DNA of 64,000 bases from Candidatus Eiseniibacteriota bacterium (lineage in GTDB: Bacteria; Eisenbacteria; RBG-16-71-46; CAVPCR01). The notes under the pieces were generated by a model, which was not told where the DNA came from, ran no database searches, and was given only the letters and a program-made list of their open reading frames with translations. Where the stretch lies: positions 672,001-736,000 of the forward strand of contig CAWGMA010000001.1 in the NCBI GenBank assembly GCA_963823555.1, written 5' to 3'. Positions within the stretch are counted from its first letter, which is position 1, and every line of letters begins with the position of its first letter. A program made the translations under genes and the position numbers. Below, piece by piece: positions 11,483-54,590 of this stretch.

Positions 11483-12170
11483 GTGGACGAGGCGCTCGAG
11501 TCGGCATCCGTCGGTCCCGAGGGCCGGCTCATCGCCGGGCTCGGCGCGTGGCTCTTTGCCGCGCCCCGCTCGACCCCGGCCGTGCTCCTCGTGCTCCTGT
11601 TCCTGGCCTTCGCGCTGGTCCTGGTGCGACGCGGCCTCTTCCGTTCGCGACCCCCGGCCGAGAACCTCTTCCGCCTCGCCGGCCGCATCGAGATGGGATT
11701 GCTCGGTCTCCTTCTCCTCGGCATGGTCTTGCTCTCGGCGCTGCAGATCCTCCTCCGCAATGCCTTCGGTTTCGGCTTTCTGTGGGTGGATCCTCTCCTC
11801 CGCTATGCCACCCTGTGGATCGGCTTCATCGGGGCCGCGGTGGCCGCGGCCCAGGGCCGACACATCCAGATCGATGTCCTCTCTCACGTTCTGACCCCGC
11901 GTGTGCGCCGGATCACCGGGCGTGTCACGAGCCTCGCCGCTGCCGCGACCTGTGCTGTGCTCTGCGAATCGGCCTATCGCTACCTGGCCAGCGAATACGC
12001 CTACGACACGCGAGAGTTCCTCCGGCTTCCCAGCTGGGTCCTCCTCCTGGTGATCCCGGTCGGCTTCGCCGTTCTCACCTATCGCTTCATCGATCGAGCG
12101 ATCATGCTGCCGCCGGCCGATGCGCTGGTAGCGATCGAAGATCAGGGCGCCGTGGGGAAGGGAGCGGCCA
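11483..12170 (+). CDS. dctQ: TRAP small permease DctQ with extra N-terminal TM segment; 3' end unclear (no stop before dctM start)
   Basis: QILLRN, LWIGFIGAA, GRHIQIDVL in ORF 11321..12505; GTG start after dctP stop. Confidence 0.75.
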
Positions 12171-13468
12171 ATGATCCTGATCGGCCTCGCTCATCGTGCT
12201 CCTCGCCGTGCTCGGAATGCCGCTCTTCAGCGTGCTCGCGGTCGATCGCGCTCCTCGCCTTCCGCGGCGCCGGCATCGACACCGCGGCGGTGATCGTCGA
12301 GATGAACCGGCTGGCGACGGCGCCGATGCTGATCGCGATCCCGCTCTTCACCTTCGCCGGCTACCTCTTCGCCGAGGCCGGATCGCCCGCCCGTCTGGTC
12401 CGCTTCTCGCGCGCGCTCCTCGGGTGGTTTCCGGGTGGGCTCGCCATCGTCGCCCTGGTCGCCTGCGCCGTGTTCACCGCCTTCACCGGCGCCAGTCGGG
12501 CGTGACGATCATCGCCATGGGTGGCATCTCTGATGCCGGCGCTGATCGCCGAACGCTACGGCGAGCGCTTCTCGCTCGGTCTCCTCACCACCTCCGGCAG
12601 TCTCGGTCTGCTCTTTCCGCCCTCGCTTCCCGTCATTCTCTACGCCTATGTGGCGCAGGTGAGCGTCGACAAGCTCTTCCTCGCCGGTTTGATTCCGGGG
12701 CTGCTCTTGATCTTGATGCTCGCCCTCTACTCGATCGCGCGTCGGCCGCGCCATGTGCCGCGCCAGCGCTTCACGGCGCGCGAGGTCTGGGCCGCGGCGC
12801 GCGGCGCGGCCTGGGAGCTCCCGCTGCCCCTCGCCGTCCTCGGCGGCATCTACTCGGGAACTCGTCACCATCACCGAAGCGGCGGCGCTCACCGCCTTCT
12901 ATGCACTCGTCGTCGAGGTGCTGATCTACCGTGACATCGACGCCGCGCGAGCTACCACGAATCATGAGGGAATCGATGGTGCTCGTCGGCGGCATCCTCA
13001 TCATCCTCGCCGCGGCCCTCGGGTCTCACCAACTACCTGATCGACGCCGAGGTGCCCTATGCGATCTTCGACTGGATGCAAGCGTTCGTGCAGTCGAAGC
13101 TCCTCTTCCTGTTGATGCTGAACCTCTTCCTCCTGGTCGTCGGCGCGCTGATGGACATCTTCTCGGCCCTGATCGTCGTGGTTCCGCTGATCGTTCCGAT
13201 CGCTCAGGGCTATGGGGTCGATCTCCTGCACCTCGGGATCATCTTCCTCGTCAATCTCGAGATCGGCTACTCGACCCCGCCGGTCGGGCTCAACCTCTTC
13301 ATCTCCTCGTTTCGCTTCCGGAAACCGGTTGCGTCCCTCTATCACGCGTCGTTGCCCTTCCTCGCCATTCTCCTGGTCGCGCTTCTCATCATCACCTACG
13401 TTCCAGGGCTCACGCTCTTCCTGACCGGGCCCGCGGGCGGGTCCGGGCTGGGTTCCGCGGCGCCCTGA
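12171..13468 (+). pseudogene. dctM: TRAP large permease DctM split by about 7 frameshifts (likely sequence error)
   Basis: Fragments AIPLFTFAG, FTGASGVTIIAMG, SLGLLFPPSLP, TITEAAA, GYSTPPVGLNLF lie in successive frames. Confidence 0.8.
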
Positions 13469-13510: not shown

Positions 13511-14878
13511 TCAGTCCGGCCGCGGGCACAGCGAGCCGAGGGGTCGGTGGCCATCGGCGGGCCATGTCACCGGCGGGCTCTGCAGGCGTTGCACCGGGCA
13601 CAAGCGAACCCGCGGCACCCAGTCGAGATTCGTCTCCACATCGTCGTAGAGACCGAGGGCGCCCGCGAGGGCGAGGCGGTCGGCATGAGGAACGGCCAGC
13701 CCGACCGCCTGCAGATGATCGCGGACGAGGGTGAGGGCCGCACCGGCCTCGGCCACGCTCGCCACCGGTTTCACGATCACGGTGCGGCCCAGCGGCGAGA
13801 ACTCGAAGTGAGGCGTGTGATCGAGGAGGACCGCGAAGCCGGCCTCGAACCCGCCGAAGAGTTCGCTCGTCGGGGGGGTCTGAGCCAGCTCGCGCGCGCC
13901 GAGGAACTGGCGGAGGGCCGAGGCCCGGGCTGGTTCGAGGGGAGCGCGCGGCCAGCGCTGCCCGATCAGCTCGAGCTCGGCGGCGAGGCGGCCGGCGAAC
14001 TCGCGCGCGGCATCGGGCGCTCTCTCCTCGATGAACACGGTGTGCGGCGACAGGCATCCCTGCTGCTCGTAGAGCGCCACCTCCCGTGCAAGAGTTCGCG
14101 CCAGGCCACGAGAATCAGCGGCGAGGGCGCGAGCGGAGAGAATGGCGGCTGATACTTTCGGTCCGTGTGCCACGAAGCGCGTGCGCTCGGGGAGCGCCGC
14201 GCGCAGGCGGATCACCGTCTCTCGGTCCCCGTGCACGACGACGGCATCGGCGGCGGCGAGGGCGGCCGTCGTGAGTGCGGTGTTCGAGCGCGACCAGTTG
14301 AGCACGGCGACCATCCCCGCCAGATCCGGATCACAGGTTTCGAGCGAGCGGGCCCACAGCGGCGCGAGGATCGGTTCGGCAGTCGCCGTCTTGATGAGCA
14401 CCGCCGATCGGAGGAGGAGAGCGACGGTCGCGGTGACGATGGCCGGCGGGAAGACCGTGCCGGCGGCGATCGCAAGCACCAGCCGCGGAGGTGCCGCGTG
14501 GAGGTGGCCGACCTCGACGCGGAGGAGCTCGGCCAGCCGCTCGGCGCGGAGCGAGTCGAAGAGCCGATCGAGGGCCTCGGCCACCATGCCGGGGGCGAAG
14601 CCGGTGGTGGCGGCGAGCTGTTGCTCGGCCACCAGGCGATGCGGGTTCGTGCGGTCGAGCCAGATCTCCGCCACGGCGCCCAGGCTCTCGAGCAGGCGCG
14701 ACGTGGTCAGTCGCCGCTCCAGGCCGGCGGCCGCGGCGACGAGGCCGCCGGTCACCGCGGTCAGAGCTTGAGCCGACGGCTGCCAGCTCGAGAAGGTATA
14801 TCCTCCGCGCGCGGTCTGCTCGGTGCCGGCGAGCGGTGCGAGGGTGGGGGGCAAGTAGACGAGGCTGCCGTCGGTCAT
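13511..14878 (-). CDS. LuxC-like acyl-CoA/acyl-protein reductase
   Basis: ALDH-like layout; HGPKVS, EQQGCLSPH (catalytic Cys); TGATG overlap with the luxE-like gene. Confidence 0.82.
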   Translation of the reverse strand: MTDGSLVYLPPTLAPLAGTEQTARGGYTFSSWQPSAQALTAVTGGLVAAAAGLERRLTTSRLLESLGAVAEIWLDRTNPHRLVAEQQLAATTGFAPGMVAEALDRLFDSLRAERLAELLRVEVGHLHAAPPRLVLAIAAGTVFPPAIVTATVALLLRSAVLIKTATAEPILAPLWARSLETCDPDLAGMVAVLNWSRSNTALTTAALAAADAVVVHGDRETVIRLRAALPERTRFVAHGPKVSAAILSARALAADSRGLARTLAREVALYEQQGCLSPHTVFIEERAPDAAREFAGRLAAELELIGQRWPRAPLEPARASALRQFLGARELAQTPPTSELFGGFEAGFAVLLDHTPHFEFSPLGRTVIVKPVASVAEAGAALTLVRDHLQAVGLAVPHADRLALAGALGLYDDVETNLDWVPRVRLCPVQRLQSPPVTWPADGHRPLGSLCPRPD

Positions 14879-16053
14879 CAGCTTATGGCGTCCAGACGCA
14901 GAAAATCATCCAAGGCCAGCGAGCAACCGCGGGCCGATGCGCCGGGCATGCGGCCCAGGAGCTCGAACCCATCACCGAGCGCCCGGCCCCGGTCCTCGGT
15001 GAGGAGCGAGACCGTGCTCGAGCGCGCGGCGAGATCGAGATGGACGAGGAGCCCCTCTTCGCCCGCGGCCACCGGGGCCAGGGTGAGGGGATCGAGGATC
15101 ATCGTGCGTACCCAGGGTGGCGCGGCCTTCGCTCGGGGCGCCCGCGGGTCGTTGGCGGCGGGGTGCTGGCCGGCCGGGAGCGCCGTGAGCGCCGCGTGGA
15201 GCGTGGTGTCGTAGAACTGGCTCACCAGTTCGGTCATGCCGTACTCGGCGACGATGGCATGAACCGGCACACCGAGACGGTCGGCAATCGCCGCATAGAG
15301 CTCGTGGCGTTCCACTTGCCGCCGCTGCCCCTTGAATCCTCCGGTCTCCATCACCCGCGAACCGGGCGCCAGCGGGATCCGGGTCCCGGCCGCGGTGAGC
15401 GCATCGACGAGCGCGAGCAACGCGATGGCGGTGGCGGCGATGAGGACCGGCTCGGCCGCGGCGGCCGCTGTCGAGAGCGCCGCGATCGCGGCATCCGCGT
15501 CGAGCGCGCCGCTGGCCGTCACGAAGTAGCGCGGCCGGGCGCCGAGCTGGCGCGCCGCGGAGCCGACCATGTAGGCGAGTGAGGATTCGGGAGCTCCGTC
15601 CGGGTCCGGAAGGAGGGCGATCCATGCGAGCTCGCGCCGGTCGGGAAGGAGATGGCGGACGAAGGGAGGCAGAAGAGCCGAGTCGGCGAGCGCGAGCGTG
15701 TCGAGCTCGAGCACCGAGCGCTGCCCTCCGCTGGTACCGCTCGAGCGGAAGCGGCGCACGGTGGCTGGAGGAGGGAACGTCGCCATGCGCATCTGACCGA
15801 AGGCGCGGGCCGGTACCGGCGGAATGTCCTCGGGCCGGTTGATGTGATCGGGATCCGCGCCGCGCGCCCGGGCATAGCGCGCGTAGGCGGGATTCCATCG
15901 CACCTGGTAGGCGAAGACGTCGAGGAGGAGCGCATCGAGAGCGTCCCGATCCGCTTTCCAGGCGGCAGCTGCTTCCGCGATGAAGGGGATGATGCGCTGG
16001 TCGAGGACTGCGGCCTCGCGGCGCTCGGCGGGATCGGGATCCAGCGTGGTCAT
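14878..16053 (-). CDS. LuxE-like acyl-protein synthetase
   Basis: FAYQ...N..Y, FRSSGTSG, METGGFKG, EYGMTEL.SQ.Y, TEDRG, ARGCS acylation Cys; start inside ORF 14878..16413. Confidence 0.85.
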   Translation of the reverse strand: MTTLDPDPAERREAAVLDQRIIPFIAEAAAAWKADRDALDALLLDVFAYQVRWNPAYARYARARGADPDHINRPEDIPPVPARAFGQMRMATFPPPATVRRFRSSGTSGGQRSVLELDTLALADSALLPPFVRHLLPDRRELAWIALLPDPDGAPESSLAYMVGSAARQLGARPRYFVTASGALDADAAIAALSTAAAAAEPVLIAATAIALLALVDALTAAGTRIPLAPGSRVMETGGFKGQRRQVERHELYAAIADRLGVPVHAIVAEYGMTELVSQFYDTTLHAALTALPAGQHPAANDPRAPRAKAAPPWVRTMILDPLTLAPVAAGEEGLLVHLDLAARSSTVSLLTEDRGRALGDGFELLGRMPGASARGCSLALDDFLRLDAIS

Positions 16054-17395
16054 CTCGACTCCGGGTGTCGGCTCGGCGGCACGAGAGAAAGGACGTCGGC
16101 AATGGCCTCGACGCCGCGTGCGAGCTCGGTCTCGCTCAGGATGTACGGCGGCGTGAGCTCGATCACCTCGCCCTCGCGGCCCGCGGTGAGGACCAGCACC
16201 CCGCGGGCGCAGAGTTCGACCATGACCGCCGCCGCTCGCTCCCCGTCCGGCGCGCCGGTCTCGGGGTCGCGCAGCTCGATGCCGGCGAACAGGCCGCGCC
16301 CGCGGATCGCCGTGATTCCATCGGATCTCGCCTAGCGCCGCTTCGAGTCCGGCGAAGAGCCCGGTGCCGAAGCTCTCCGGCGCGCTCGACGAGATGCTCC
16401 GACGCGATGACATCGAGGACAGCCAGGGCCGCGGCGGCCGCCAGCGGATGACCGAGGAAAGTCGCCGTGTGCAGGGCAGGACCGGGATGGCTTCGCCACG
16501 CGTCCATCACCTGGGCCGAGCCCACGGCCGCCGCCAGCGGGAGGCCGCCGCCCAGCGCCTTGCCGATGAGAAGGAGGTCGGGGACGATTCCCTCATCCTC
16601 GACCGCAAACCAGCGCCCGGTGCGCCCGAGCCCGGTCATGATCTCGTCGACGATCAGGAGCGCGCCGTGGCGCCGGCAGGCGGCGTGGAGCGCGGGAATG
16701 AGCCCCGGCGGGGCCGGTCGCACGCCGCCACGACCTTGGATCGGCTCGATCACGACCGCGCCGATATCGCCATCCGCAAGAATTGACTCGATCAAGCTGA
16801 AATCGGCGTGGTCGGGGGCCGTGAGGGGGACCTGTCGCACGTGCCCCGCCAGCTGGGCGGCGAACGGCCGGCGGAAGTGGTCATGACCCGCGAGGGGCAG
16901 GGCCCCGTAGGAGAGACCGTGGTAACCACCGGCGAAGGCGATCACTCCGGGCTTGCCGGTGGCAAGGAGTGCGGTCTTGAGCGCCGCTTCGACCGCGTCG
17001 GTACCGTTCAGGCCGAGGTGGGTCACTCCGAGGTCGCCGGGAGCGATCGCGGCCAGGCGCTCGAGAAGCTCCACCTTGATCCGGGCCGGGTGCACGTCAC
17101 CCATGGCGTGGATGAGCTCTCCAGCTTGCCTGGTGACGGCCTCCTCGACGCGGGGATGGGTGTGGCCGATGGCGGCCACCCCGAAGGCGGCGGTGAGGTC
17201 GAGATACTCGTGACCGTCCGCATCCCAGACCCGGGTCCCCCGTGCCCGCTCCCAGACCACGGGAAAGCGCGGGCCGCGGCCCGTGACGCCCGGATTCTCC
17301 ACCGTGGCGAGGCGATCCAGAAGAGCGCGCGAGCGCGGTCCGGATCCGGCGACCGCCTGGCGGCGGCCCTTCGCTGTCGGCTCACGGAGGTCCAT
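16050..17395 (-). CDS. Class III PLP aminotransferase with two +1 frameshifts near 16370 and 16323 (probably artefactual)
   Basis: WDADG.EYLD, EPIQGRGG, DEIMTGLGRTG, GKALGGG, HTATF.GHP; corrected C-terminus IRGRGLFAGIEL...LTPPYIL ends at TGA overlapping the luxE ATG. Confidence 0.85.
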
Positions 17396-28993: not shown

Positions 28994-29102
28994 AGATCGG
29001 GCGACGCCGGCATCGCATCGTCGTTTGGGATAGTTGCGTGTCGGCGCAGCTAATTACGGCATGATCCAGACAGGCCGCAGAGGGTTCCTGCACGTGCGCA
29101 AA

Positions 29103-32100
29103 ATGCTGATCGCGCTCGGCGCGCTCGCCGTCATCGTATTCGCTGGCCACCTTCTCCTTGCCGCCGGCCCGCTGGGACCGGTCGCGGCGAGCGCTCGCGA
29201 GCCGGCGCCCGGTGAGGCGACCCGGCCGTCGACTCTTCCCCGCACGGTACCTGTGGATCCGGTCGAGCTCGTGGCCAGCGATGAGCGGGGCACGACCCTC
29301 CTCTGCACCGCCGGCCCGCCGGAGCTCGTTCCCGTGGGGGAGGAGGATGGGGCGGATCCGACCCGACGAGTGCGGGTCGCGATCCATGGATTCACGGCCA
29401 TGAGCCCGCCGGGGGCTCCCGACCTTCCGGGGCGGTCGGTCCTGGTGGCGATTCCAGCGGGGGCGCGGCCCCGGCTCCGGGTCACCATGGGCGGCGAGGA
29501 GGAGATCTCCCAGGTCCGCGTGGCCCCGATCCCCGTGCCGGGCCCCCGGCCCGAAGCCGGCGCGATCCCGACCTGGCTCCCGAGCGAGGACGCCGTCTTC
29601 TACGCCAGCTCCTACCCCGAGGAGCGCGTGCTCCTGTCGCCGGTCATGCGGATGGGTGATCTCGATGTGGTCTCGGTCACCATCCGGCCTGCCGTCTTCG
29701 ATCCAGAGCGTTCGCTCATCCGCTTCGCCACCCGCATCGAGATCGAGGTGATCACCGAGGGTGGGGTCTCCCGCCGTTCGGGGTCCGACGTCGGCGCCGG
29801 TCCGTCCACCGTGAGCGCCGTCGTCAACCAGGAAGCGGCCCGCGGATTCGGCCGGGAGCGGTCCCCTTTCCGGACCGCTCGACGTCAGGAAGGGGCGAGC
29901 TTCGAGAGCTCGAATCACTGGGTCCGGATCTCGGTGGCCGCTCGTGGTCTCGTCCGGGTCGATGGCGCCCGTCTGGCCGCGGCCGGTGTGGACATCGCCA
30001 CCATCGATCCCTCGAGCCTGCGTGTGTTCTGGGGTGGAGGGCTCGATCCCGAGCCCGGGGTGAGCCCGCGATCGCCGAGCGCGGCTTCCTTCATGAACGA
30101 GTGCGCGATCGAGGTCGTGGATGGAGGCGACGGCCGGCTTGATACCGGTGACGCCGTCGTCTTCCTCGGTCAGGGCGCATCGGGCTGGCGCGATGACTTC
30201 CGTGGCGGGACGTATGCGCTCGACTACGTCGAACATGCGCGAGTCAAGACCGGGGTCTACTGGCTCACCTGGGGTGGGGATTTTACCGATCCGCCGCAGA
30301 GAATTGCGTCGCGCGATGCAACGCCGGCGGGCGGCCCCGTGGTGACCCGGGGCCGGGCGCGCATTCACTTCGAACGCAATCGCCGCTACTATTCCGATCT
30401 CTACGAGGCGGGCCAGAAGTGGGAGCGCTGGTTCGATGCCATCCTCACCGACTACGATGCCGCGGTCTACTTTCCGATCCGCCCCGAGAAGCCCGATGTC
30501 ACCGCTCCCGGCGCACTCAATCTGCGATTGTGGGGGTACACGAGCATGGGGAACCAGGCGACCATCCGCGACCACTACCTGCGGGCCTGGTTCAACGGTG
30601 AGCCCATTCTCACTCCAGCCGGACGAGACACCTTCATCTGGGATGGGCCGCGGTTCCAGAGGACAGGGCGTCAGGATGTGACGAGCGAGACGCTTCAGCT
30701 CCTCGACGGCGAGAACCGCCTGCAGCTCGATGTCCTCGTCGTCAACGATCCGCTGAACCCGAACCGGAGCGATCAGGTGCTCATGGCCTGGTATGACTTC
30801 GGATGGGTGCGCCGACTCGATTTCGCCGGCGAGGCCGGCGGGGAGGCGGTGCCGTTCGGCGATCCTGGTCCGGCCACCGTCGAGGTGAACGGGGCGCCCG
30901 CCGGGGCCCGGGTCTTCGACGTCAGCGATCCGTGGCGACCGATCGAGCTCGCCGGGATCGAGCGCGCGGGGACGGTCCTGCGCTTCGCTGCCGATCTCGA
31001 TCCGGCGTCGCCGCCCAAGTTCCTGGTCGGGGTCACGCCGGCGGCGCCGGCGGCGGTCGAGGTGGATCAGAGCCAGCCGCACCTCCGGCGGGCCGACCAC
31101 GCGGCCTGGTACATCGTCATCGCCCACGACTCGATGATCGCGGAGGCCACCCGCCTGGCGGAGGCTCATGCCCGCCACGCTCCACCCGAGGGCGCGCCGC
31201 CGGGGCCGCCCCTCGCGGTCCGGCTTTCGGACGTCGTCGACGAGTTCGGCTGGGGACTCCGGAGCGAGATCGCCATCCGCAACTTCGTCGACTGGGCCTT
31301 CCACGAGTGGTCGGCCCCGCCGCTCTACATCTGTCTTCTCGGCGACGCCTCCTATGATCCTCAAGACAACTACGGGGACGGCACCCGGGAGACCGATCTC
31401 GTCCCTGCGGCCCAGTTCTGGAACTGGATCGGCGGGTCGTACGGCGGCTCGGACTACATCTCGGACGACTACTACGTTCGCACCTTCGGCGACGCGCTCG
31501 AGTCGCCGCCCGACGTCATGAGCGATCTCTACGTCGGCCGCATCCCGGCGGGGAGCCGCAGCGAGGCGCAGATCGCCGTGGATCAGAAGACGATTCCCTT
31601 CCTCACCGATCCCGAGTTCGGGCCATGGCGGCAGCGGGCGCTCATCCTCGCCGACGACGAGTACGCCGGTGGGGATCCGCCGCGCTACGAGGGCTTCATT
31701 CATGTCCAGTACAGCGAGCAGGTGGCCGCGCTCCTGCCGCCGGAGCTGGAGCGGCAGAAGATCTACCTCACCGACTACCCGTGCAATCCGTGCACCAGCC
31801 CGCGCGCCAAGCCGGCGGCGCGCGAGGCGTTCGTCAACGCCTTCAGCGACGGGGCCGCCTTCATCAACTACATCGGCCACGGAGCCCCCGATGTCCTGGC
31901 GCACGAGGCGGTCTTCAAGATCGAGAACGTGGGCCAGCTCACCAACAGCCGCCGTCTGCCGTTCTTCTCGACCTTCTCCTGCACGGTGAACCGCTTCGAT
32001 GAGCCGGCGAGCGAGGGGATCGGCGAGGCGCTCGTCAACCACGAGGGCGGGGGTTCGGTGGCCTCGATCGGGTCGACCGATCTTGCGTTCATTTCCTCCA

Positions 32101-33347
32101 ATCTGGTGCTCAACGAGGGTACCTACGCCCGCATGTACGAGAACTCCGATCTCCTCCTGCCGCAGACGTTCGGCCGAGCTTTCGGCGACACCAAGAATGC
32201 ACTGGCCGCCGCCGGTGACACGTCCGGGGCGCGCAAGTATGTGCTGCTCGGAGATCCGGCGCTCAGTCCCGGCACGCCGAACCGGCGCCTGCTCCTCGAC
32301 TTTCCGGGTGCGGTGGTGCGCGGGGACACGACGGAGCTCGTTGCCGGGGTGCCCTCGATGGTCCGGGGCTGGCTCGATGGGCAACCGCCCTCTGGCTCGT
32401 GGACAGCCGAGCTGCGGGCCAGGGACTCCGATGTCGTCACCCGGCATGGGACCGTGAACAGCGGGGTCAGCTACCTCCTTCCGGGGAACTCCCTCTTCCG
32501 CTCGACCCTGCCCGTCTCCGGGGACACTCTCAAGTCGCAGCTCGTCGTTCCCATCGATGCCGCCCAGAGCCTCTCTCCGGGCCGCGGCGCGGGACAGACC
32601 AGGGTCTATGCGAGGGGGGCGGATTTCGATGCAGCCGGCTTGAACGTGCTCTTCCTCAACGTCGAGGATGCGGAGCCGACCGAGCCGAACTCGGATGGGG
32701 GTCCCCGCATCACGGTCTCCTTCGATGCTCCGGATTCTGATGCCGTCCCGCCGAATGCCACGCTCCACATCCGTCTAGAAGATCAGAGCGGGATCAACAT
32801 CGTGGGCAATACCCCCTCGAACTCGGTCTTCATGCGGATCGATGAGCGCGAGACCGTGGTCATGAACGAGCAGTTCGTCTACGAGCCGGGGAGCGCGACG
32901 GCGGGAACCATCGACGTGAGCTTGCCGGACCTCGAGGGAGGTCCTCACGTCATCCGTATCTACGCTTCCGACAACTACCTGAACCGGAGCGAGGAGGATG
33001 TCCCGTTCAGCATCCTGGAGGCGGGGGAGACGGGCATCCGGAACGCAGGTTTCTACCCGAACCCGTTCGACCTCGGCGCCGGCCAGGGCACGGTGCTGTC
33101 CTTCACCCTGCCCGAGCCAGCCGAGGTGTCGATCCGCATCTATACGGTCAGCGGCAAGCTCGTCCGGGACCGTTTTCCCGAGATCGACCGCGCCTTGTCC
33201 CCGGGGACGACGCAGGTTTTTTGGGATGGGCGGGATCAGGATGGAGATTTGGTCGCCAACGGGGTGTATCTGTGTGCGATCGCGGCCCATGGGAGCCTCT
33301 CCGGGACCCGGGACGAGGTCATCCTGCGCTCCGTCGTCCGCCGCTAG
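29103..33347 (+). CDS. porU: C25 (gingipain-family) PorU-like sortase with FlgD/T9SS C-terminal domain
   Basis: LLGDASYD, VGRIP, NYIGHG (His), FSCTV.RFD (Cys), LLGDPAL, LEDQSGIN, C-terminal YPNPF...IYTVSGKLV...WDGRD...NGVY. Confidence 0.8.
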   Translation: MLIALGALAVIVFAGHLLLAAGPLGPVAASAREPAPGEATRPSTLPRTVPVDPVELVASDERGTTLLCTAGPPELVPVGEEDGADPTRRVRVAIHGFTAMSPPGAPDLPGRSVLVAIPAGARPRLRVTMGGEEEISQVRVAPIPVPGPRPEAGAIPTWLPSEDAVFYASSYPEERVLLSPVMRMGDLDVVSVTIRPAVFDPERSLIRFATRIEIEVITEGGVSRRSGSDVGAGPSTVSAVVNQEAARGFGRERSPFRTARRQEGASFESSNHWVRISVAARGLVRVDGARLAAAGVDIATIDPSSLRVFWGGGLDPEPGVSPRSPSAASFMNECAIEVVDGGDGRLDTGDAVVFLGQGASGWRDDFRGGTYALDYVEHARVKTGVYWLTWGGDFTDPPQRIASRDATPAGGPVVTRGRARIHFERNRRYYSDLYEAGQKWERWFDAILTDYDAAVYFPIRPEKPDVTAPGALNLRLWGYTSMGNQATIRDHYLRAWFNGEPILTPAGRDTFIWDGPRFQRTGRQDVTSETLQLLDGENRLQLDVLVVNDPLNPNRSDQVLMAWYDFGWVRRLDFAGEAGGEAVPFGDPGPATVEVNGAPAGARVFDVSDPWRPIELAGIERAGTVLRFAADLDPASPPKFLVGVTPAAPAAVEVDQSQPHLRRADHAAWYIVIAHDSMIAEATRLAEAHARHAPPEGAPPGPPLAVRLSDVVDEFGWGLRSEIAIRNFVDWAFHEWSAPPLYICLLGDASYDPQDNYGDGTRETDLVPAAQFWNWIGGSYGGSDYISDDYYVRTFGDALESPPDVMSDLYVGRIPAGSRSEAQIAVDQKTIPFLTDPEFGPWRQRALILADDEYAGGDPPRYEGFIHVQYSEQVAALLPPELERQKIYLTDYPCNPCTSPRAKPAAREAFVNAFSDGAAFINYIGHGAPDVLAHEAVFKIENVGQLTNSRRLPFFSTFSCTVNRFDEPASEGIGEALVNHEGGGSVASIGSTDLAFISSNLVLNEGTYARMYENSDLLLPQTFGRAFGDTKNALAAAGDTSGARKYVLLGDPALSPGTPNRRLLLDFPGAVVRGDTTELVAGVPSMVRGWLDGQPPSGSWTAELRARDSDVVTRHGTVNSGVSYLLPGNSLFRSTLPVSGDTLKSQLVVPIDAAQSLSPGRGAGQTRVYARGADFDAAGLNVLFLNVEDAEPTEPNSDGGPRITVSFDAPDSDAVPPNATLHIRLEDQSGINIVGNTPSNSVFMRIDERETVVMNEQFVYEPGSATAGTIDVSLPDLEGGPHVIRIYASDNYLNRSEEDVPFSILEAGETGIRNAGFYPNPFDLGAGQGTVLSFTLPEPAEVSIRIYTVSGKLVRDRFPEIDRALSPGTTQVFWDGRDQDGDLVANGVYLCAIAAHGSLSGTRDEVILRSVVRR

Positions 33348-33506
33348 TCGAGCGGGCGAACCTCTTGTCCGCTCGAGGGTTCTATCAACGTGACCGGTGG
33401 CCAGCCTGCTCCGAGCAACCACTCCCATGTGCGGAGTGTGGTGCCGATAACCAGAGAGGGCTTCCAGGCTGGGTCGGGTGACCCGGATCCGAACCCGGGC
33501 CGTGAG

Positions 33507-33535
33507 TTGACCCTCCCCCAAGCGGGTGATACGAT
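33507..33535 (+). promoter_or_regulatory. Sigma70-like promoter with extended -10 upstream of porV
   Basis: TTGACC-17 nt-TACGAT with TG at the extended -10 position. Confidence 0.6.
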
Positions 33536-33583
33536 GACGAGGCTAAGTCCTTGCTGTACAAATCATTGCTGGAGGGATCGGTG

Positions 33584-34555
33584 ATGTTTCGCGCTTTCAT
33601 GGCGGCGCTCGCCCTGTTCTTCTTCGCCGCCGGAGCCGCCCACGCTCAATCCGAGGCCGGCGCGGCTTCGCTCCAAATCGAACCCTCCGCCAGGGCCAAC
33701 GGGATGGGGAAGGGTTTTGTCGCCGTAACCGATGACGCCACCATGAGCTGGTGGAACCCCGCGTCCCTCGCCTTCGAGTCGGATCGCCAGGCCACCCTCA
33801 TGCACAGCCAGCTCGTGCCTGGTCTCGCCGACGATGTCTTCTACGAGTTCTTCGGCTACACCTCGAGCATCAAGGGGCTCGGCGGATTTGGTGTCAGCCT
33901 CATTTACCTCACCTATGGCAAGAATGTGGCCACCGACTTTTCGGGTCAGGTGATCGGCGAGTTCACGAGCTACGAAGTGGTGCCGGCGGTCTCGTTCGGG
34001 ACCAAGCTCATGGACAACCTCGGTCTTGGGGTCAACTTCAAGTTCGTCTGGGTGGACCTGGCGCCGGCGGCGGTCACCCGCGACGGGCACGACGGCCGCG
34101 GCACGACCGTGGCGCTCGACGGCGCCATGTTGTGGCGCATCCCGAAGTACCGCTTGAACGCAGCCTTCAATTTCCAGAACATCGGACCGGATCTGGCCTT
34201 CATCGATGAGGACCAGTCGGATCCTCTGCCGCGGAACCTGAAGCTGGGCCTTGCCTACTGGCTGCTCGCGACGGAGGCGCACACCGTGATCCTGGCTGGG
34301 GATCTGAACAAGCCTTTCGTCCGCGTCGATGACGGCCCGCTGCTCAACGTGGGCGCCGAGTATCAACTCGGCCAGTACCTCGCCGGGCGCTTCGGCTGGG
34401 TCTACGAGGGGTGGTTCTCCCAGATCGATCCCATCAACGGTCCATCATTCGGTCTCGGACTCCGATACAAGGGATTCTCGTTCGATTACGCGAGCGTTCC
34501 GCAGGCCCCTGGCCTCGATCGCGTGAGTCGGTTCTCGTTCAACGCCCGCTTCTAG
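33584..34555 (+). CDS. porV: PorV/PorQ family outer-membrane beta-barrel
   Basis: LQIEPSARANGMG, DDAT...WNPASLA, NIGP, PLPRNLKLG, C-terminal Phe; follows porU. Confidence 0.8.
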   Translation: MFRAFMAALALFFFAAGAAHAQSEAGAASLQIEPSARANGMGKGFVAVTDDATMSWWNPASLAFESDRQATLMHSQLVPGLADDVFYEFFGYTSSIKGLGGFGVSLIYLTYGKNVATDFSGQVIGEFTSYEVVPAVSFGTKLMDNLGLGVNFKFVWVDLAPAAVTRDGHDGRGTTVALDGAMLWRIPKYRLNAAFNFQNIGPDLAFIDEDQSDPLPRNLKLGLAYWLLATEAHTVILAGDLNKPFVRVDDGPLLNVGAEYQLGQYLAGRFGWVYEGWFSQIDPINGPSFGLGLRYKGFSFDYASVPQAPGLDRVSRFSFNARF

Positions 34556-34583
34556 GACGCGGCGGGGAGTCAGGCAAAACCGC

Positions 34584-35618
34584 ATGCATCTCGCCTCTAG
34601 GATGAAGAGGCCTCGCGAGAGGGAGGCCGCACCGCCGCGGCAGCGGGCGAGGGCGCCCTATCGCCTCGCGGCGGGGCTCCTGGCGATCGTGCTCGGCTCT
34701 CTCCTTCTCGCCGCTCCGGCCGTTGCCGGTCTCGGAGATCCGGAGCCCTCGCCCTTCTTCCCCATTCGCAGCCTCTTCGGATTCCCGGACCAGTCTCCGG
34801 GGCTGGCCCAGCGAGCCATCGAGGACGAGGAAGAGAAGAAGAAGCCCGCCGAGGAAGTGCCGCCGGAGCTCTCGATCCCGGAGCCGCCGCCCCTCACCAC
34901 CGAGATCGAGCCCAAGTCCCCGACCAAGGCCTTCCTCCTGTCCGCGGCGGTCCCGGGCCTCGGTGAGCTCTACAGCGGTTCCAATCGCGGGTACATCTTC
35001 CTCGGCGTCGAAGCGGCAGCATGGATCACGTACGCCTCGTACAAGTCGAGCGCCGGCAACAAGGAAGACGAGCTCTACGCGTACGCCGACCGTAGCTTCT
35101 CGATCGCGGCTTTCGAAACCGGATGTGTCGGGCAGCCGGGCCAGCCTTGCCAGGAGGCTCTCGACGCCATCAACAATTTCTACCTCAACGACAAGGGCGA
35201 GTACTACGAGATCATCTCCAAGAACCCCATCTACAAGCCCGGATGGGGTGTGCAGGTGCAGTCCGACGGCAGCTTCACCTATGAGAACTGCGATCTCGGC
35301 GATCTGGGCTGCCCGCCCGATCCCAGCCAGCCCGGTCAAGAGGCCGCCTACCGGCAATGGGTTGCGGACCAGGCGGCCGCCCAGGATCGGGACTACATCC
35401 AGTACAATGGCCTGCGTGATGACCGCAACTCGCTCGATTCCAACGCGCGCACCGCGACGATGGTGGTGCTCATCAATCACATCGCCTCCGCTTTCGATGC
35501 TCTGATGGTCGCCCGGGGCTTCAACGCCAGCCTGCCCCAGGGTGTGGACATGAAATTCACGATCAAGACGTCGCTCGGCAATCCTGGCGGCAAGGTCGTC
35601 TTCAAGCGCAAGTTCTGA
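34584..35618 (+). CDS. DUF5683-like envelope protein
   Basis: KSPTKAFLLSAAVPGLGELY...NHIASAFDA; C-terminal Phe. Confidence 0.6.
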   Translation: MHLASRMKRPREREAAPPRQRARAPYRLAAGLLAIVLGSLLLAAPAVAGLGDPEPSPFFPIRSLFGFPDQSPGLAQRAIEDEEEKKKPAEEVPPELSIPEPPPLTTEIEPKSPTKAFLLSAAVPGLGELYSGSNRGYIFLGVEAAAWITYASYKSSAGNKEDELYAYADRSFSIAAFETGCVGQPGQPCQEALDAINNFYLNDKGEYYEIISKNPIYKPGWGVQVQSDGSFTYENCDLGDLGCPPDPSQPGQEAAYRQWVADQAAAQDRDYIQYNGLRDDRNSLDSNARTATMVVLINHIASAFDALMVARGFNASLPQGVDMKFTIKTSLGNPGGKVVFKRKF

Positions 35619-35620
35619 AC

Positions 35621-36526
35621 GTGACTCATCGCTTCCCGATCACACCGGTTCTCGTTCTCGCCGTTGCCGCGATGGTGGCTGCGGCTTCGCCGTCCGTTGC
35701 GGGGGATGGGGCCGCCACCAGCGGGCCCGAGCCGGCGCTCGCTTCCTCGTTCCCGCCATTCGAGCTCGATGTCGAAGCCGCGATCCAGCTCGCCCAGGTC
35801 GATCCGACCCGCGGCGGGGACCAGGATGACGAGGACGACAAGAAGCGGCCCGATCCCGAAGTCAGCCCCGTCGATACCGGCGGTCCTTCACGGGCGAAGG
35901 CGATCCTCTACTCCGCGCTCCTTCCCGGGATGGGCCAGCTCTACGCCGGCGACAAGACCATGGGGACCATCTTCCTCATCGGCGAGGCGGTCTGCTGGAC
36001 GAGCTATGCCACCTTCCAGGTCCAGGGCAGCCAGCGCGAGGATCGTTACATCCAGTATGCCGAGCGCTTTGCCGGTGTCGGTGACGCCAGCGGTCAGTCG
36101 AGCTCCTACTACGGTTCTCTGGCCCGCTACGACCGTTCGGGCGAGCCGGGCGGCCCGGAAAGCTACAACGAGATCGAAGTACGTCTTCGCGCGCGCGAGC
36201 TCTATCCCGACGATCAAGCCCAGCAGGCGGAATACATCAGGGAGAACGAGATCACCGGGGAGCAGGCCTGGGACTGGGAATCGGATGATCGCCGCTACGA
36301 CTACGCCGACATTCGCATCTCCTCCGAAACGGCGTATCATCGGGCCAATTACGCCGTGGCCGGGCTCGTGGTCAATCGGATCCTGAGCGTCTTGCATGCC
36401 GTCTGGTTGACAGCAGACGAGGAAGAGCCGGCCGCGGACAGTGGTGTCAAGCGGACGGCCCGGCCGTTTGCCGACAGCGACTTCGCCCTCGGGTCGAGTC
36501 GCCTCGGTGTGCGTTACACGTTCTGA
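35621..36526 (+). CDS. DUF5683-like envelope protein (paralogue)
   Basis: KAILYSALLPGMGQLY...NRILSVLHA; C-terminal Phe. Confidence 0.6.
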   Translation: MTHRFPITPVLVLAVAAMVAAASPSVAGDGAATSGPEPALASSFPPFELDVEAAIQLAQVDPTRGGDQDDEDDKKRPDPEVSPVDTGGPSRAKAILYSALLPGMGQLYAGDKTMGTIFLIGEAVCWTSYATFQVQGSQREDRYIQYAERFAGVGDASGQSSSYYGSLARYDRSGEPGGPESYNEIEVRLRARELYPDDQAQQAEYIRENEITGEQAWDWESDDRRYDYADIRISSETAYHRANYAVAGLVVNRILSVLHAVWLTADEEEPAADSGVKRTARPFADSDFALGSSRLGVRYTF

Positions 36527-36596
36527 CCCCCCGCGCGGGCGCCGCAGGCGCCGGGTGCGCTCCGCGGTCCTGAAGCCCGCGCCCCAGGCCAGCCCC

Positions 36597-37616
36597 ATGT
36601 CGATGCCAGCGCACCGCAAATCCCATCTCAAGAGAATCGCCGCGGCGTTCCTCGCCGCATTCACCGCCGTGGCCATGACGGCGGTCCTCGCCGCTGAGCC
36701 CGATTCCCTCGCGACCGTCGCGACCGATGCTCGTGCTCCCGGATCCGCCGACAGCCTGAATCTGCGCTTCGAGTCGATTCTGGGGCACAGCGGCAACGAG
36801 CACGGCGAGTTCCGGCGCCCACTCGCCGTCTCGGAATCGCCATCCGGGGTGCTCGTCGTCGACACCGGCAACAGCCGTGTGCAGAGCCTCGATGCGAACG
36901 GGGAGTACTTGTGGGAGGCGGGAGGACTGGGCACGGCCGAAGGAAGCCTCCGCCGGCCCACCTCCGCCGTGGCCAGCGGACTGGCCGTCTACGTGCTCGA
37001 CGCACTTGGCCTGCGCATCCATCAATTCCATATCCGCGGGGAATATCAAGGAGTCGCTCTCGACTTCCGGCGGCCCGATCTCGAGGATAGGCTGGGACGC
37101 GTCGATCCCCGCGGCCTCGCCGTCGGGCGCTCGGGCAGCATTCTCGTCACCGACTCCGAAGGGGACCGGCTCCTCGTCTTCGCCCCGGATTGGGCCCTCC
37201 TTCACGTCATCGGGGGATTCGGCTCGGGGCCGCAGTCGTTCTCGGATCCGGAGGGCATCGCGACCGATCGCGAGCGCATCCTGGTCGCCGATTCGGGCAA
37301 CGAGCGCATCCAGGTGCTCGACTTCATGGGCCGCTTCATCGCCAGCTGGCCGGTGCCCGGTGGTGGGCGGCCGATGAGCGTGGCGGTGGACGCACGCGGC
37401 GTCATCTACGTTGCCGATGCCGGCCGCCACCGCGTGCTCGCGCTCGGCAGGAGCGGTCAGCTGCTCGGTTCGGTCGGGGCCGAGGGCCGGGGGCCGGGTT
37501 CTCTCCGCGGTCCGTCGGGCGTGTGCGTGATCGGGGATCGCCTGATCGTCGCCGACTCGGAGAACGATCGACTCGCCCGGTTCATCATCGAACGCGCTGG
37601 CGGATCGAGCCCGTAG
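36597..37616 (+). CDS. Secreted NHL-repeat beta-propeller
   Basis: Repeats VVDTGNSRVQ, VADSGNERIQ, VADAGRHRV, VADSENDR. Confidence 0.85.
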   Translation: MSMPAHRKSHLKRIAAAFLAAFTAVAMTAVLAAEPDSLATVATDARAPGSADSLNLRFESILGHSGNEHGEFRRPLAVSESPSGVLVVDTGNSRVQSLDANGEYLWEAGGLGTAEGSLRRPTSAVASGLAVYVLDALGLRIHQFHIRGEYQGVALDFRRPDLEDRLGRVDPRGLAVGRSGSILVTDSEGDRLLVFAPDWALLHVIGGFGSGPQSFSDPEGIATDRERILVADSGNERIQVLDFMGRFIASWPVPGGGRPMSVAVDARGVIYVADAGRHRVLALGRSGQLLGSVGAEGRGPGSLRGPSGVCVIGDRLIVADSENDRLARFIIERAGGSSP

Positions 37617-37664
37617 CAGGGCGGCAGGCGGGAACCGGAGGATGAGCACGGAGCAAAGGGCATC

Positions 37665-40600
37665 ATGAGGCAGCCGACGAGCGTGCGACATGGAGCCTCC
37701 GGGAGGGCGCCCGACCGCTGGCGATCCCTGATGGCTCCCGCGGTCAGGCTCGGACTCCTGCTCGCCCTGGTTCCGGCTCCCGCCCGGGCGGCGGCTGATC
37801 CTGATTCGTCCGCCGCGACTCCGGCTCCGTTCCCTCTCATCGCGCTCGACCGTACCCGCGTCACGATGATGGTCTCCGGCGACCGCCTCTGTCTCGAGCA
37901 CCGCCATCTCGATCCATCCACTCTCATCGTGCGCTTGGGGCAGAGTCAGCTCGTGCCCGGGCGCGATTTCGCGCTCGATGCCGCCGCGGGCTGCCTCACC
38001 TTCGCCGATCCCCGCCGGTTCCTCGGCGCCCATCTCGAGATCCAGTACGCTCATTTCCCGTTCCCGCTCGCCACCCGCTACGTGCATCGCGATCCGGTTC
38101 CCCTCGAGGTGCCGGCCGGCGCTCCTCCCGACACGGTGATCCCGATCGAGCGGCACGAGCGCCTGGCGACCATCCCACCGGCGTCCGGCGGCCGGCTCCA
38201 GATCCGCGGCAACAAGAGCTTCGCGGTGCGGGTGGGTTCCAACCGGGATGCCAGTCTCAACCAATCGCTCGACCTCGATGTGAGCGGCGAGGTCGCCAGC
38301 GGGGTCGAACTCCGGGCCATCCTCACCGACCGGGACCTGCCGCTGCAGCCGCAGGGCGATACCGAAACACTCAACGAGCTCGACAAGATCCTCCTGGAGG
38401 TCCGCTCCAAGAGCCTCGCCGCCACTCTCGGCGATTACGACGTACAGGCTTTCGGCGGCAGCTTCCTGAGCTACTCGAAACGGCTCGAGGGGGTGAAGGC
38501 GGAGGGCAGACACGACGGGCGCGAGTTCGTGATGGCGGCCGCCGTGGCCAAGGGCGAGTTCATCTCGCTGCCGGTGCCCGCGCTCGAAGGCAAGCAGGGG
38601 CCCTACGCGCTGACCGACGCTTCGGGCAACACATCGATCGTCGTCGTTGCTGGATCCGAGGCCGTATGGCTGAACGGGGAACGCCTCACCCGAGGTGACG
38701 GCAACGACTACACGATCGACTACGGGCGAGCCGAGGTCACCTTCACCACGCGCCGTCTCATCACTCGTGATTCGCGCATCGTCGTGGACTTCGAATACAC
38801 CACCGAGGCCTTCGAGCGCAATTTCTACGTCGGTGGCGCGCGGGGCTCGCTGGGGGGCGACAAGTTCTCGTTCGGGGCGTCGGTGGTCTCGGAGTCCGAC
38901 GATGCCAAGAACCCGATCGGATCCCTGAGCGACGCCGAGCGTTCGGTCCTGGCGGCTGCCGGCGATACCTTGCGTGCGACGGCGCAGGCCGGAGCGGTCC
39001 TGGTCGGTGATGGTCGCGGGGACTACGTTGCACTCGGCGAGAGCACGGAGGCGCTCCGCTATCAATACGTCGGACCGAACCGCGGCAACTACGAGGTCAA
39101 CTTCCTCCATGTCGGGCTTGGCGCGGGAGACTACCTCGACTCGCTGACCGTGAGCGGGGGCAAGGCCTATCGCTGGGTGGGGGCGGGGTCGGGAAGCTAC
39201 GAGCCGGGGCGTTTCCTGGCCGCACCCGAGAGCCACCAGATTCTCGACTTCACGGGCCAGAGTCGTCTCGGCGACTTCGAGCTGGGCGGCGAGTTCGCTC
39301 TGTCGGGCCTCGATCTCAACACGCTCTCGAGCAGCGACGACCTCGACAACACCGGGACGGCCACCGGCCTTCGGCTGGGCTATTCGCCGACCGTCACCCT
39401 GGCTGGCCATCAAGTGGGAGTCGCGGTCCGCGCCGGCTATCGCGATGTCGGCACCAGCTTCCGCACGCTCGGTCGTATCCGCCCAGCCGACTACGCCTAC
39501 ACGTGGAACGCTCCGGCCGGCGCCTTCGATCAGGGCGAGCGCTTGCGGGACCTGGGGATGGAGGTCACCCCACTCAGGGGGGTGAGCATCGGCGGCGATT
39601 TCGGCTCCACCCGCACCGAGCTCTTCGCCGGAGATCGTTCCGGGATGAGCATCGCGCTCGATCGCGAGCTCCGCGGCCGTTTCCGGCTCGAACGCATCGC
39701 CGGCCAGGATCGCGGGGCACCGGCGGCCGATTCGACCGGGATCGCCGCCGTGACCGCAGATCTGGATCGTGCCTACGAGAGCGGAGAGCTCGCCACCGAC
39801 GTCCGAATGTTCACGCCGCGGCTGCGCTACGAACGCGACGAGCGCATCGAATACCGCGGGGCGGTCCGCGTCGGCTCCGGTTACACGGTCTTCGGCGGTG
39901 GCACCGAGGTGCGCCTGCCGTCGCGGGCGCGGCTCACCCTCGACTTCCGCCAGCGTGACGATCGTGTCCTCGGCACCGGGAGCCCGTGGTCTGAGACCGT
40001 TGCCGCCTTCGAGCAGAGCTACCGCCTCGAGGTGCCGCGGGTGAGCGCGGTTTCGGTGAGCGGTGCCTTCACGCGCCGTACCTCCGATGATCGACTGCGC
40101 GCGGTGCGGCAGGTGTCGGACCTGATTCAGCTCGATATCGTGCATTCCTCACAGCGGGGCGGAGTCGAATCGGAAACCCACGCCGATGTCACGACCACGG
40201 ATGTCGGCGGCGAGAACCAGGAGCTGGTCTACGTCGGTGCGGGGCAGGGCGTGCTCGATGAGTACGGGCGTTACGTGGGTCCGGGCGGGGATTACGTCCT
40301 GCGCCAGACCAATGGTGGGATCCCCGATCTGCGCACCCGGCTGCGCCTGGCGGCGCGGGCCGAGGTCCGCCCGCGTCGCTTCCTGGAGCCCTCGGCCGGC
40401 GGTGCCCGGCGCGTCCTGGCGGCACTCGGCGCCGAGACCACGATGCAGGTGGATGAGCTCACGCGGCTCAACCTCTCGAGCCCGCGCTACTTCTTCTTCC
40501 CCTCCAACTACCAGCGTGAGGATGCCACGTTCCGTGGCACGTTCTACCTGCGGCAGGATGTCGACATCCTCGAGTCCAACATGCTCCTGAGCTTCCGAGT

Positions 40601-41186
40601 CCGCGGCGAGCTGCGGAACGAGCTCGACAACCGGGTCTCCGGGGTGAGCAAGGACCGGGAGGCGAGGACGACAGGGCTTCGCGTGCGTTCCTCTCCGTGG
40701 TCGCCGTTCTCCGCCGAGCTCGAGCAGACCTGGGGCACCGCCAGCGATGTCGAGGCGGCGACCGGCGCCGGAAGCCCAAGCCTGGGCGAGAGCCGCCTCG
40801 ATCTCGACACCGGGTCGACGGCACTCGAGCTCACCTCGCGTCCGGGGCGCGATACGCGGATCGGCTTCCTCGTCCGCCGCCAGGTGGAGCAGGTCACGGG
40901 GGGGACGGCCGAGGCCGACATTCTCGAGCTCACGCCCAGCGTGACGACCTACTGGCGGCGGGCACGAGTGGACCTGCGCTACCGGCGCGTTCGTGAGGAG
41001 CGGACCGGGGTCTTCCCTCCGAGCTATCGCGCCAGCTTCCAGCCAGGAACGCGCAGCGAGTACGGCGTCAACATGGACTATCGCCCCCTCGAGCATGTGA
41101 CCCTCACCGGTGGCCTGGAGGGCATCCGACTGCCGACCCAGTCCTTCAATCACACCGCGCGCCTCGAAGTGCGCATCTTCTTCTAG
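37665..41186 (+). CDS. Very large outer-membrane beta-barrel-like protein of unknown function
   Basis: Signal peptide; LNQSLDLDVSGE, GSEAVWLNGE..RG..NDYTIDY; alternating beta-strand pattern; ends RIFF. Confidence 0.65.
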   Translation: MRQPTSVRHGASGRAPDRWRSLMAPAVRLGLLLALVPAPARAAADPDSSAATPAPFPLIALDRTRVTMMVSGDRLCLEHRHLDPSTLIVRLGQSQLVPGRDFALDAAAGCLTFADPRRFLGAHLEIQYAHFPFPLATRYVHRDPVPLEVPAGAPPDTVIPIERHERLATIPPASGGRLQIRGNKSFAVRVGSNRDASLNQSLDLDVSGEVASGVELRAILTDRDLPLQPQGDTETLNELDKILLEVRSKSLAATLGDYDVQAFGGSFLSYSKRLEGVKAEGRHDGREFVMAAAVAKGEFISLPVPALEGKQGPYALTDASGNTSIVVVAGSEAVWLNGERLTRGDGNDYTIDYGRAEVTFTTRRLITRDSRIVVDFEYTTEAFERNFYVGGARGSLGGDKFSFGASVVSESDDAKNPIGSLSDAERSVLAAAGDTLRATAQAGAVLVGDGRGDYVALGESTEALRYQYVGPNRGNYEVNFLHVGLGAGDYLDSLTVSGGKAYRWVGAGSGSYEPGRFLAAPESHQILDFTGQSRLGDFELGGEFALSGLDLNTLSSSDDLDNTGTATGLRLGYSPTVTLAGHQVGVAVRAGYRDVGTSFRTLGRIRPADYAYTWNAPAGAFDQGERLRDLGMEVTPLRGVSIGGDFGSTRTELFAGDRSGMSIALDRELRGRFRLERIAGQDRGAPAADSTGIAAVTADLDRAYESGELATDVRMFTPRLRYERDERIEYRGAVRVGSGYTVFGGGTEVRLPSRARLTLDFRQRDDRVLGTGSPWSETVAAFEQSYRLEVPRVSAVSVSGAFTRRTSDDRLRAVRQVSDLIQLDIVHSSQRGGVESETHADVTTTDVGGENQELVYVGAGQGVLDEYGRYVGPGGDYVLRQTNGGIPDLRTRLRLAARAEVRPRRFLEPSAGGARRVLAALGAETTMQVDELTRLNLSSPRYFFFPSNYQREDATFRGTFYLRQDVDILESNMLLSFRVRGELRNELDNRVSGVSKDREARTTGLRVRSSPWSPFSAELEQTWGTASDVEAATGAGSPSLGESRLDLDTGSTALELTSRPGRDTRIGFLVRRQVEQVTGGTAEADILELTPSVTTYWRRARVDLRYRRVREERTGVFPPSYRASFQPGTRSEYGVNMDYRPLEHVTLTGGLEGIRLPTQSFNHTARLEVRIFF

Positions 41187-41204
41187 TTGGAGGCGATTCC
41201 GGCC

Positions 41205-49410: not shown

Positions 49411-50016
49411 ATGACTCCTGACCTTCGCTTGACCGCGCTCCTCCAGGCCGCTCGTGACGGCGATCGCGCCGCCCGTGACGACCTGATGCCGCTCGTCTAC
49501 GACGAGCTCCGCCGCATCGCGCGCCAGCGGCTGGCTGGCTTCCGTCCCGGATCCGTTCTCAGCACGACCTCGCTCGTGCACGAGGCCTACGTCAAGCTGG
49601 TCGAGCCCACCAAGGTGGGCTGGCAAGATCGGGCTCACTTCTTTGCGCTGGCATCGCGGGCGATGCGCTTCATCCTGGTCGACTACGCGCGGGCCCGGGC
49701 CGCGCAGAAGCGCGGCGGGGGAAAGGGCGAGCTGCCGCTCGAGGAGATCCAGATCGAAGCCGGCGCCGGCGGGGTGAGCGAGAGCGAACGCGCGTTCGAG
49801 CTCCTGACACTCAATCGCGCTCTCGACGACCTCCTGGGCTTCAGCTCACGCCTGGCCGAGATCGTCGAGTACCGGTTCTTCGGCGGGCTCACCTTCGAGG
49901 AGATCGCCGAGACGACGGGACGCTCGGTGCCCACCGTGAAGCGCGACTGGCAGCGGGCGCGAGCCTGGCTCTACCGGGCCATGGCCCAGGAGGGGGAGGT
50001 CACGGCCGAGAGCTAG
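49411..50016 (+). CDS. ECF sigma factor of the kinase-associated type (ECF43/TIGR02999-like)
   Basis: LVYDELRRIA, TTSLVHEAY, HFFA.A..AMR.ILVDYAR, KRGGG, TVKRDW..ARAWL. Confidence 0.9.
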   Translation: MTPDLRLTALLQAARDGDRAARDDLMPLVYDELRRIARQRLAGFRPGSVLSTTSLVHEAYVKLVEPTKVGWQDRAHFFALASRAMRFILVDYARARAAQKRGGGKGELPLEEIQIEAGAGGVSESERAFELLTLNRALDDLLGFSSRLAEIVEYRFFGGLTFEEIAETTGRSVPTVKRDWQRARAWLYRAMAQEGEVTAES

Positions 50017-50143
50017 CCGCAATCGGATACCAGGATGGGATTCCCCGAAAGGGCCCGCGATACGGGCCTCGTTGTTTTTCCGATAGAGAAGTCAAGCGGT
50101 CGAAGACAGGGGTCGAACTCAGGGAGGGGTGTCGAGCTCAATC

Positions 50144-54583: not shown

Positions 54584-54590
54584 TGCAACG

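Follow-up and report, generated by a model that had tools for sequence, protein, structure and literature searches.

What could genes related to luxE and luxC do in a bacterium where no luciferase was found, and what would the aminotransferase joined to them contribute? The question is raised by a three-gene operon (the trio) in a 64,000-nt stretch of DNA from Candidatus Eiseniibacteriota, here called the window, whose numbering is used for all positions; the genome it comes from (G000) is 92.5% complete. The genes lie on the minus strand in the order class III pyridoxal phosphate (PLP) aminotransferase (16050..17395; split over three frames by two single-base insertions, without which 447 aa are predicted), predicted LuxE-like adenylating enzyme (14878..16053, 391 aa) and predicted LuxC-like acyl-thioester reductase (13511..14878, 455 aa). 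Six-frame translation gives this order together with two minus-strand overlaps, ATGA between the aminotransferase stop and the LuxE start (16050..16053) and TGATG between the LuxE stop and the LuxC start (14876..14880). The coupling of the three genes, the two overlaps and the two catalytic residues, Cys377 (ARGCS) of the LuxE-like enzyme and Cys275 (QQGCLSP) of the LuxC-like one, are present as the initial annotation described them, and both cysteines are invariant in alignments.

The same annotation had seen no luxA, luxB or luxD in the window, and this stands: the window genes scanned with Pfam contain no LuxA/B/D family (luxD was not searched genome-wide), and the luciferase family PF00296 was not found in the whole of G000. 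The genome carries one LuxE-family gene. The nearest relative among the matches listed, L001, is titled Ca. Eisenbacteria and shows 64% identity and an identical gene order. A promoter scan at the operon found none, and terminator-like sites upstream are at chance level (one found, 0.7 expected).

The answer that we consider quite probable, judging from sequence comparison, is that the trio converts 7-carboxy-7-deazaguanine (CDG) into preQ1, from which the tRNA base queuosine is made, without passing through a nitrile, and that it replaces QueC and QueF in this pathway. It seems to us equally probable that a LuxE/LuxC-type carboxylate reductase has been turned to a nucleobase acid, with a dedicated aminotransferase, across many mostly uncultured phyla.

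Distribution of the trio relative to QueC, QueF and QueE

In G000, FolE, QueD, QueE (of the Cx14CxxC type), Tgt and QueA score above the NCBIfam cut-offs, and QueG above that of Pfam. Profile searches of this 92.5% complete genome found neither QueF nor QueC, the three weak QueC matches being MnmA and two proteins that, by our reading of their sequences, are probably ThiI-like and asparagine-synthetase-like. Unless another route exists, the pathway in this genome would stop at CDG. Tgt shows the Cys (LDVC) and Val (GGLMVGE) of preQ1-type enzymes, these residues presumably matching those of the Zymomonas numbering. The roles of this Cys and Val are described in PMC3660597 (available in part). 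Not far from the stand-alone queE, G000 carries a second gene for a DnaE-like polymerase (G000:C1:1473000-1475086, L087), which seems to be truncated or split.

The own-phylum sample comprises 151 genomes, 48 of which carry the LuxE subfamily and 103 do not. QueC and QueF are each found in 0/48 of the LuxE-positive genomes and QueE in 45/48, while among the 103 LuxE-negative genomes 84 have QueC, 82 have QueF and 89 have either of them. Counted from the side of QueE, 84 of the 131 QueE-positive genomes carry QueC or QueF, 45 carry the LuxE subfamily, and two carry neither; moreover, the two families without QueC, QueF and the LuxE subfamily are also without QueE (0/8). Two genomes, G113 and G120, were excluded before the count of 48, as their matches score about 90-107 bits (at least 340 in the others) and belong to another LuxE/LuxC subfamily. 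Members of that subfamily (L133, L134; G113, G120) lie in a cluster with acyl carrier protein (ACP), short-chain dehydrogenase/reductase (SDR) and AMP-ligase genes near polysaccharide genes, with QueC and QueF kept in the genome.

A second sample consists of 141 genomes belonging to the same phylum as the Longimicrobiales record G153. In this phylum canonical QueC is found in 0/23 LuxE-positive genomes, compared with 98/118 LuxE-negative ones. Among the 118 QueE-positive genomes, 95 have QueC, 22 have LuxE and one has neither, and 19 of the 23 QueE-negative genomes have neither QueC nor LuxE. The QueF check in this phylum covered five genomes and G153, with a weak QueF match in G293. The third sample, 50 LuxE-positive genomes of several phyla drawn from the first set of 80 loci described below, shows QueE in 48/50, canonical QueC in 1/50 and QueF in 0/50; weak QueF matches in four of these genomes were identified as FolE. 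Three genomes flagged as unpublished, G015 (own phylum), G253 and G293 (second phylum), are included, and their omission shifts each count by at most two.

This pattern also bears on the idea that the trio works on a common metabolite, reducing and aminating its side-chain carboxyl (glutamate to ornithine, aminoadipate to lysine, or gamma-aminobutyric acid (GABA) to putrescine), and that the match with queC and queF loss reflects nothing but shared ancestry. Both traits do track families, and among named aminotransferases those of GABA, putrescine and acetylornithine are the nearest, but the pattern recurs in two phyla and in the 50 mixed genomes, the QueE-less lineages are also without the trio, and no gene of these amino-acid routes recurs beside it. 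As the ArgD and GabT scores and the GabT-type residues of the aminotransferase (see below) speak against it too, we regard this explanation as highly improbable.

A physical tie to the pathway is seen in the position of queE, which adjoins trio genes on the same strand in four lineages. In five Verrucomicrobiia loci it lies upstream with one small gene between; in L176 (Methylomirabilota) it is directly upstream; in G083, which has the window's own order, the genes run queD, queE, aminotransferase, insertion, LuxE-LuxC fusion; and in G301 queE lies 4 bases before luxE, which is followed by luxC.

Several observations weigh against the assignment of the trio to queuosine synthesis. The queE adjacency is rare (5/80, 1/80, 1/14 and 0/78 loci) and absent at the window locus. 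LuxE-positive G173 has a canonical QueC, without QueF, and a divergent QueC-like gene (about 100-115 bits) occurs in five Verrucomicrobiia and in G301, where it stands beside an SDR gene and a QueD-like gene. Three QueE-positive genomes (G035, G066, G217) yielded no QueC, LuxE or LuxC, and six LuxE-positive genomes yielded no QueE (3/48, 2/50 and 1/23). No Rfam match to a preQ1 riboswitch was found in the window or in nine related loci. Moreover, the counts overstate independence, because both traits follow family lines (seven trio families in the own-phylum sample), and all absences are drawn from incomplete genomes.

The divergent QueC-like protein (L136-L139; G301:C18 = L382) keeps the SGGLDS motif and the Cys cluster, and its host genomes carry trio genes and are without QueF.

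The LuxE-like and LuxC-like enzymes and the proposed route

The LuxE-like protein scores 53 bits with PF04443 (cut-off 24.9) and only 55 of the 550 bits of the bioluminescence LuxE equivalog NF052244. When the profile of its family is aligned to Photobacterium LuxE (7xc6_E, E 1e-35), Lys241, Arg368 and Cys377 correspond to Lys238, Arg355 and Cys364 there, residues tied to adenylation and thioester formation in PMC9157457 (available in part). The LuxC-like protein behaves similarly, scoring 167.3 bits with PF05893, above the cut-off, and 41.9 of the 750 bits of the bioluminescence LuxC equivalog NF052251; its family profile aligns to 7xc6_A (E 5e-49), with Cys275 present in 34/34 sequences. Both genes are intact and keep every invariant residue. 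In three cases LuxE and LuxC are apparently fused in one frame, in L121 (G083; 857 aa), L022 (774 aa) and L094 (791 aa).

The structural model of the LuxE-like protein (mean predicted local distance difference test score, pLDDT, 91.8) is confident except near the Cys tail. Ser157, Ser158, Glu236 and Thr237 are invariant in 158 LuxE-subfamily sequences, position 270 is Gln or Glu in 158/158, and Gln279 is found in 151/158; this collection (38 sequences of our own alignment and the 120 best of 2490 matches) is biased to close kin. At positions 157, 158, 236, 237, 270 and 279 the residues of fatty-acid LuxE are Val, Trp, Thr, Gly, Thr and Cys. By analogy with adenylating-enzyme structures, these six positions may line the acid pocket. 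The model has a PaaK-like fold, its best matches being PaaK aryl-CoA (coenzyme A) ligases, which use a CoA-binding C-domain. The agreement (PDB 2Y27, 2Y4N; TM-score 0.61) is with enzymes that activate aromatic acids; identity to them is 17-18%, and the window protein, unlike them, ends in a LuxE-type Cys tail.

We infer the substrate, product, cofactor and amino donor of the trio as follows. The LuxE-like enzyme would adenylate the carboxyl of CDG with ATP and bind the acyl group to Cys377 in thioester linkage. From there the group would move to Cys275 of the LuxC-like enzyme, where reduction by NAD(P)H would yield 7-formyl-7-deazaguanine, and the aminotransferase would turn this aldehyde into the aminomethyl group of preQ1. 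Tgt, QueA and QueG would carry preQ1 on to queuosine, and preQ0 would never be made.

Conversion of the CDG carboxyl into the preQ1 aminomethyl group is the net change brought about by QueC and QueF (PMC13740343, available in part), so the chemistry of the proposed route, COOH to CH2NH2, fits it exactly. Compared with QueC (preQ0 synthase) and QueF (nitrile reductase), the trio is predicted to have the same start and end, CDG and preQ1, and it has the same surrounding pathway genes, but the folds are unrelated, and the predicted passage is through a thioester and an aldehyde, whereas QueC and QueF pass through an amide and a nitrile. In the available part of PMC13740343, 7-formyl-7-deazaguanine is mentioned only as a by-product of QueF mutants. 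No published description of a trio route to preQ1 was found in the literature searched, which included few subscription papers and no supplements; the component families and the product are known, and the route is likely new to that literature.

Comparison with the LuxC-LuxE complex of Photobacterium phosphoreum (PDB 7XC6; PMC9157457, the part available) suggests the same sequence of adenylation, thioester on a C-terminal Cys and hand-over to a reductase Cys, which is predicted here from conserved residues. The differences are that no luciferase was found in the trio genome, that the scores are far below the equivalog level, that polar substitutions occur, and that an aminotransferase is coupled.

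The initial annotation had expected alkylamines or omega-amino compounds as products, by analogy with TamH of tambjamine synthesis. Fatty amines or other alkylamines made from fatty acids, as by TamH or by TabE with TabA, would suit the LuxE and LuxC fatty acid reductase subunits (no other characterised relative of known structure was found by sequence), and a reductase with an omega-transaminase yields dodecylamine in tambjamine synthesis (bioRxiv 10.1101/2025.08.11.669332, available in part). The TamH and TabE-TabA systems share with the trio the reduction of a thioester to an aldehyde followed by transamination, but they use carrier-bound C12 acyl chains within a natural-product cluster, while the activator of the trio is LuxE-like. 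No ACP, thioesterase or natural-product gene is widely recurrent among the neighbours of the 80 loci, and no carrier-protein or bipyrrole-cluster gene is found among their recurring neighbours or in the window; the TamH analogy is not supported. Fatty amine synthesis also leaves unexplained why QueC and QueF are almost completely excluded, why the trio is tied to QueE and why queE can adjoin it, observations that link the trio to the queuosine pathway instead; both equivalog cut-offs are far off, and polar residues stand where fatty-acid LuxE has hydrophobic ones. On these sequence features a fatty substrate is unlikely, and we consider the synthesis of alkylamines very improbable; omega-amino compounds as products are likewise not supported.

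Operation in reverse, which had been suggested as amine catabolism, was also rejected, since ATP drives the LuxE step and, of the aldehyde dehydrogenase triad, LuxC retains the Cys alone (PMC12041015, available in part).

Conservation of the trio and its dedicated aminotransferase

The LuxE subfamily comprises at least 2490 protein clusters. The titles of records carrying it include Eisenbacteria, Myxococcota, Gemmatimonadota, Verrucomicrobiota, Vulcanimicrobiota, Binatia, Methylomirabilota, Nitrospirota and others, with no cultured strain seen among them. Records L180, L208, L226 and L241 are titled Enterobacteriaceae or Klebsiella; these titles may be wrong, since the aminotransferase of L208 groups with Binatia-type sequences.

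A survey of the neighbourhoods of LuxE and LuxC homologues, proposed as a check in the initial annotation, covered two sets of loci, the best 80 of at least 342 confirmed LuxE loci and a further 80 of 424, with one contig common to both. In the first set LuxC is present in 69 loci, the aminotransferase in 53 (directly before luxE in 39) and all three genes in 50; in the second set all three are present in 32/80 loci. With the complete set present in 50/80 of the best LuxE loci, the trio is not a chance association. Other neighbours of the 80 loci differ by lineage. A link to sulfur metabolism (SUF, MetY, PAPS reductase and YpdA genes nearby) was considered and rejected, each of these genes being limited to one lineage, and was taken as synteny.

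The aminotransferase scores 270.7 bits with PF00202, above the Pfam cut-off, and its PLP lysine is invariant in the 27/27 aligned sequences. It falls short of the ArgD cut-off (235 of 410 bits for the truncated protein and 275 for an intact relative) and of that of GabT (226 of 507 and 297 bits, respectively). In a quick tree of 91 rows, from which the other class III enzymes of G000 were left out as too weak or fragmented, it sits in a clade of 38 rows with support 99, marked by the motif EPIQGRGG. The Glu of the GabT motif EPIQGEGG is replaced by Arg in 37/38 rows (the remaining row was missed by the search pattern); we take it to be Glu211 of the Glu211/Arg398 pair, a switch for dicarboxylic substrates. 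Moreover, the clade is without the C-terminal Arg that binds the alpha-carboxyl in GabT (on the role of Arg398, see PMC10827958, available in part). With Arg in place of Glu and no C-terminal Arg, the protein is not a housekeeping GabT or ArgD, and whether it might group with these, as had been asked, is answered by a dedicated clade apart from the other class III enzymes sampled. The earlier proposal of a luciferase-free module leading from an acid through an aldehyde to an amine is supported to the extent that the module is conserved and has a dedicated aminotransferase.

All ten tested genomes without an aminotransferase beside luxE carry an orthologue elsewhere, and these displaced orthologues score 520-606 bits, whereas no other class III enzyme exceeds 338. 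In other lineages the partner comes from a second clade (19 rows of the same tree, support 100). The best matches from ten chosen LuxE-negative genomes of the 103 lie outside both clades, and three rows of the EPIQGRGG clade come from genomes in which LuxE was not found (G035, G066, G074), relatives in those families being mostly LuxE-positive.

The second clade (HVTTFGGHP; L119-L126, L175-L252) retains the GabT Glu and Arg. Its members accompany the same LuxE/LuxC subfamily in Binatia, Methylomirabilota and Nitrospirota as well as in some own-phylum families.

The use of two aminotransferase clades leaves the last step loosely fixed, which would suit a scheme where CDG is the substrate but the product or the order of steps differs, the aldehyde entering tRNA and being aminated there, or another 7-deazaguanine being made for DNA or a small molecule. 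The links run to QueE and QueD only, which fixes just CDG as the substrate. Still, both QueC and QueF are missing whereas Tgt, QueA and QueG remain, and Tgt has the Cys and Val of preQ1-type enzymes, free preQ1 being the simplest link; we therefore hold such a scheme to be improbable and retain preQ1 as the product of the proposed route.

The two indels in the aminotransferase gene had been treated in the initial annotation as needing repair, and probably the frameshifts are indeed not real. The N-terminal part is 72% identical to the intact 448-aa orthologue of L001, compared with which the window carries a single additional base at each of two places, near 16369 and at 16323-16324. Two near-identical contigs from sequencing runs of two studies are without both of them: the X1 contig (757 bases aligned, 31 differences, about 96% identity) and the X2 contig (151 bases aligned, four differences). 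For this reason the frameshifts are probably assembly errors. Were the aminotransferase of this genome truly broken and the operon decaying, which would be compatible with the other readings, a sign of it would be that the two insertions do not cancel each other; but besides X1 and X2, the same assembly splits DctM and 3/55 testable genes (4/43 by a looser count), and the LuxE-like and LuxC-like genes are intact with their invariant residues kept. True decay is accordingly given a low probability.

DctM belongs to a TRAP transporter (TAtT, DctP, DctQ-DctM) that adjoins the operon on the plus strand (window 11483-13465); it is in three pieces here and a single 674-aa gene in L001, so that further assembly errors probably account for it.

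Other genes of the window and implications

Two further groups of plus-strand genes were observed in the window. Genes for a peptidase C25 (gingipain family), PorV and Omp85 lie in one run at 29061-43019, suggesting that this lineage has a type IX-like secretion system. At 49429-56897 an extracytoplasmic function (ECF) sigma factor and a Ser/Thr kinase-tetratricopeptide repeat (TPR) protein are followed by a lyase for aromatic amino acids and another kinase-TPR protein.

According to the available part of PMC10516641, every validated 7-deazaguanine pathway has preQ0 as its key intermediate. If the trio does convert CDG to preQ1, pathway maps would change, since the route would bypass preQ0, and many genomes that currently count as incapable of queuosine synthesis would be re-classed. 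Moreover, a large orphan subfamily of luxE and luxC genes would gain a function in tRNA modification, and the trio would be a carrier-free acid-to-amine cascade acting on a heteroaromatic acid.

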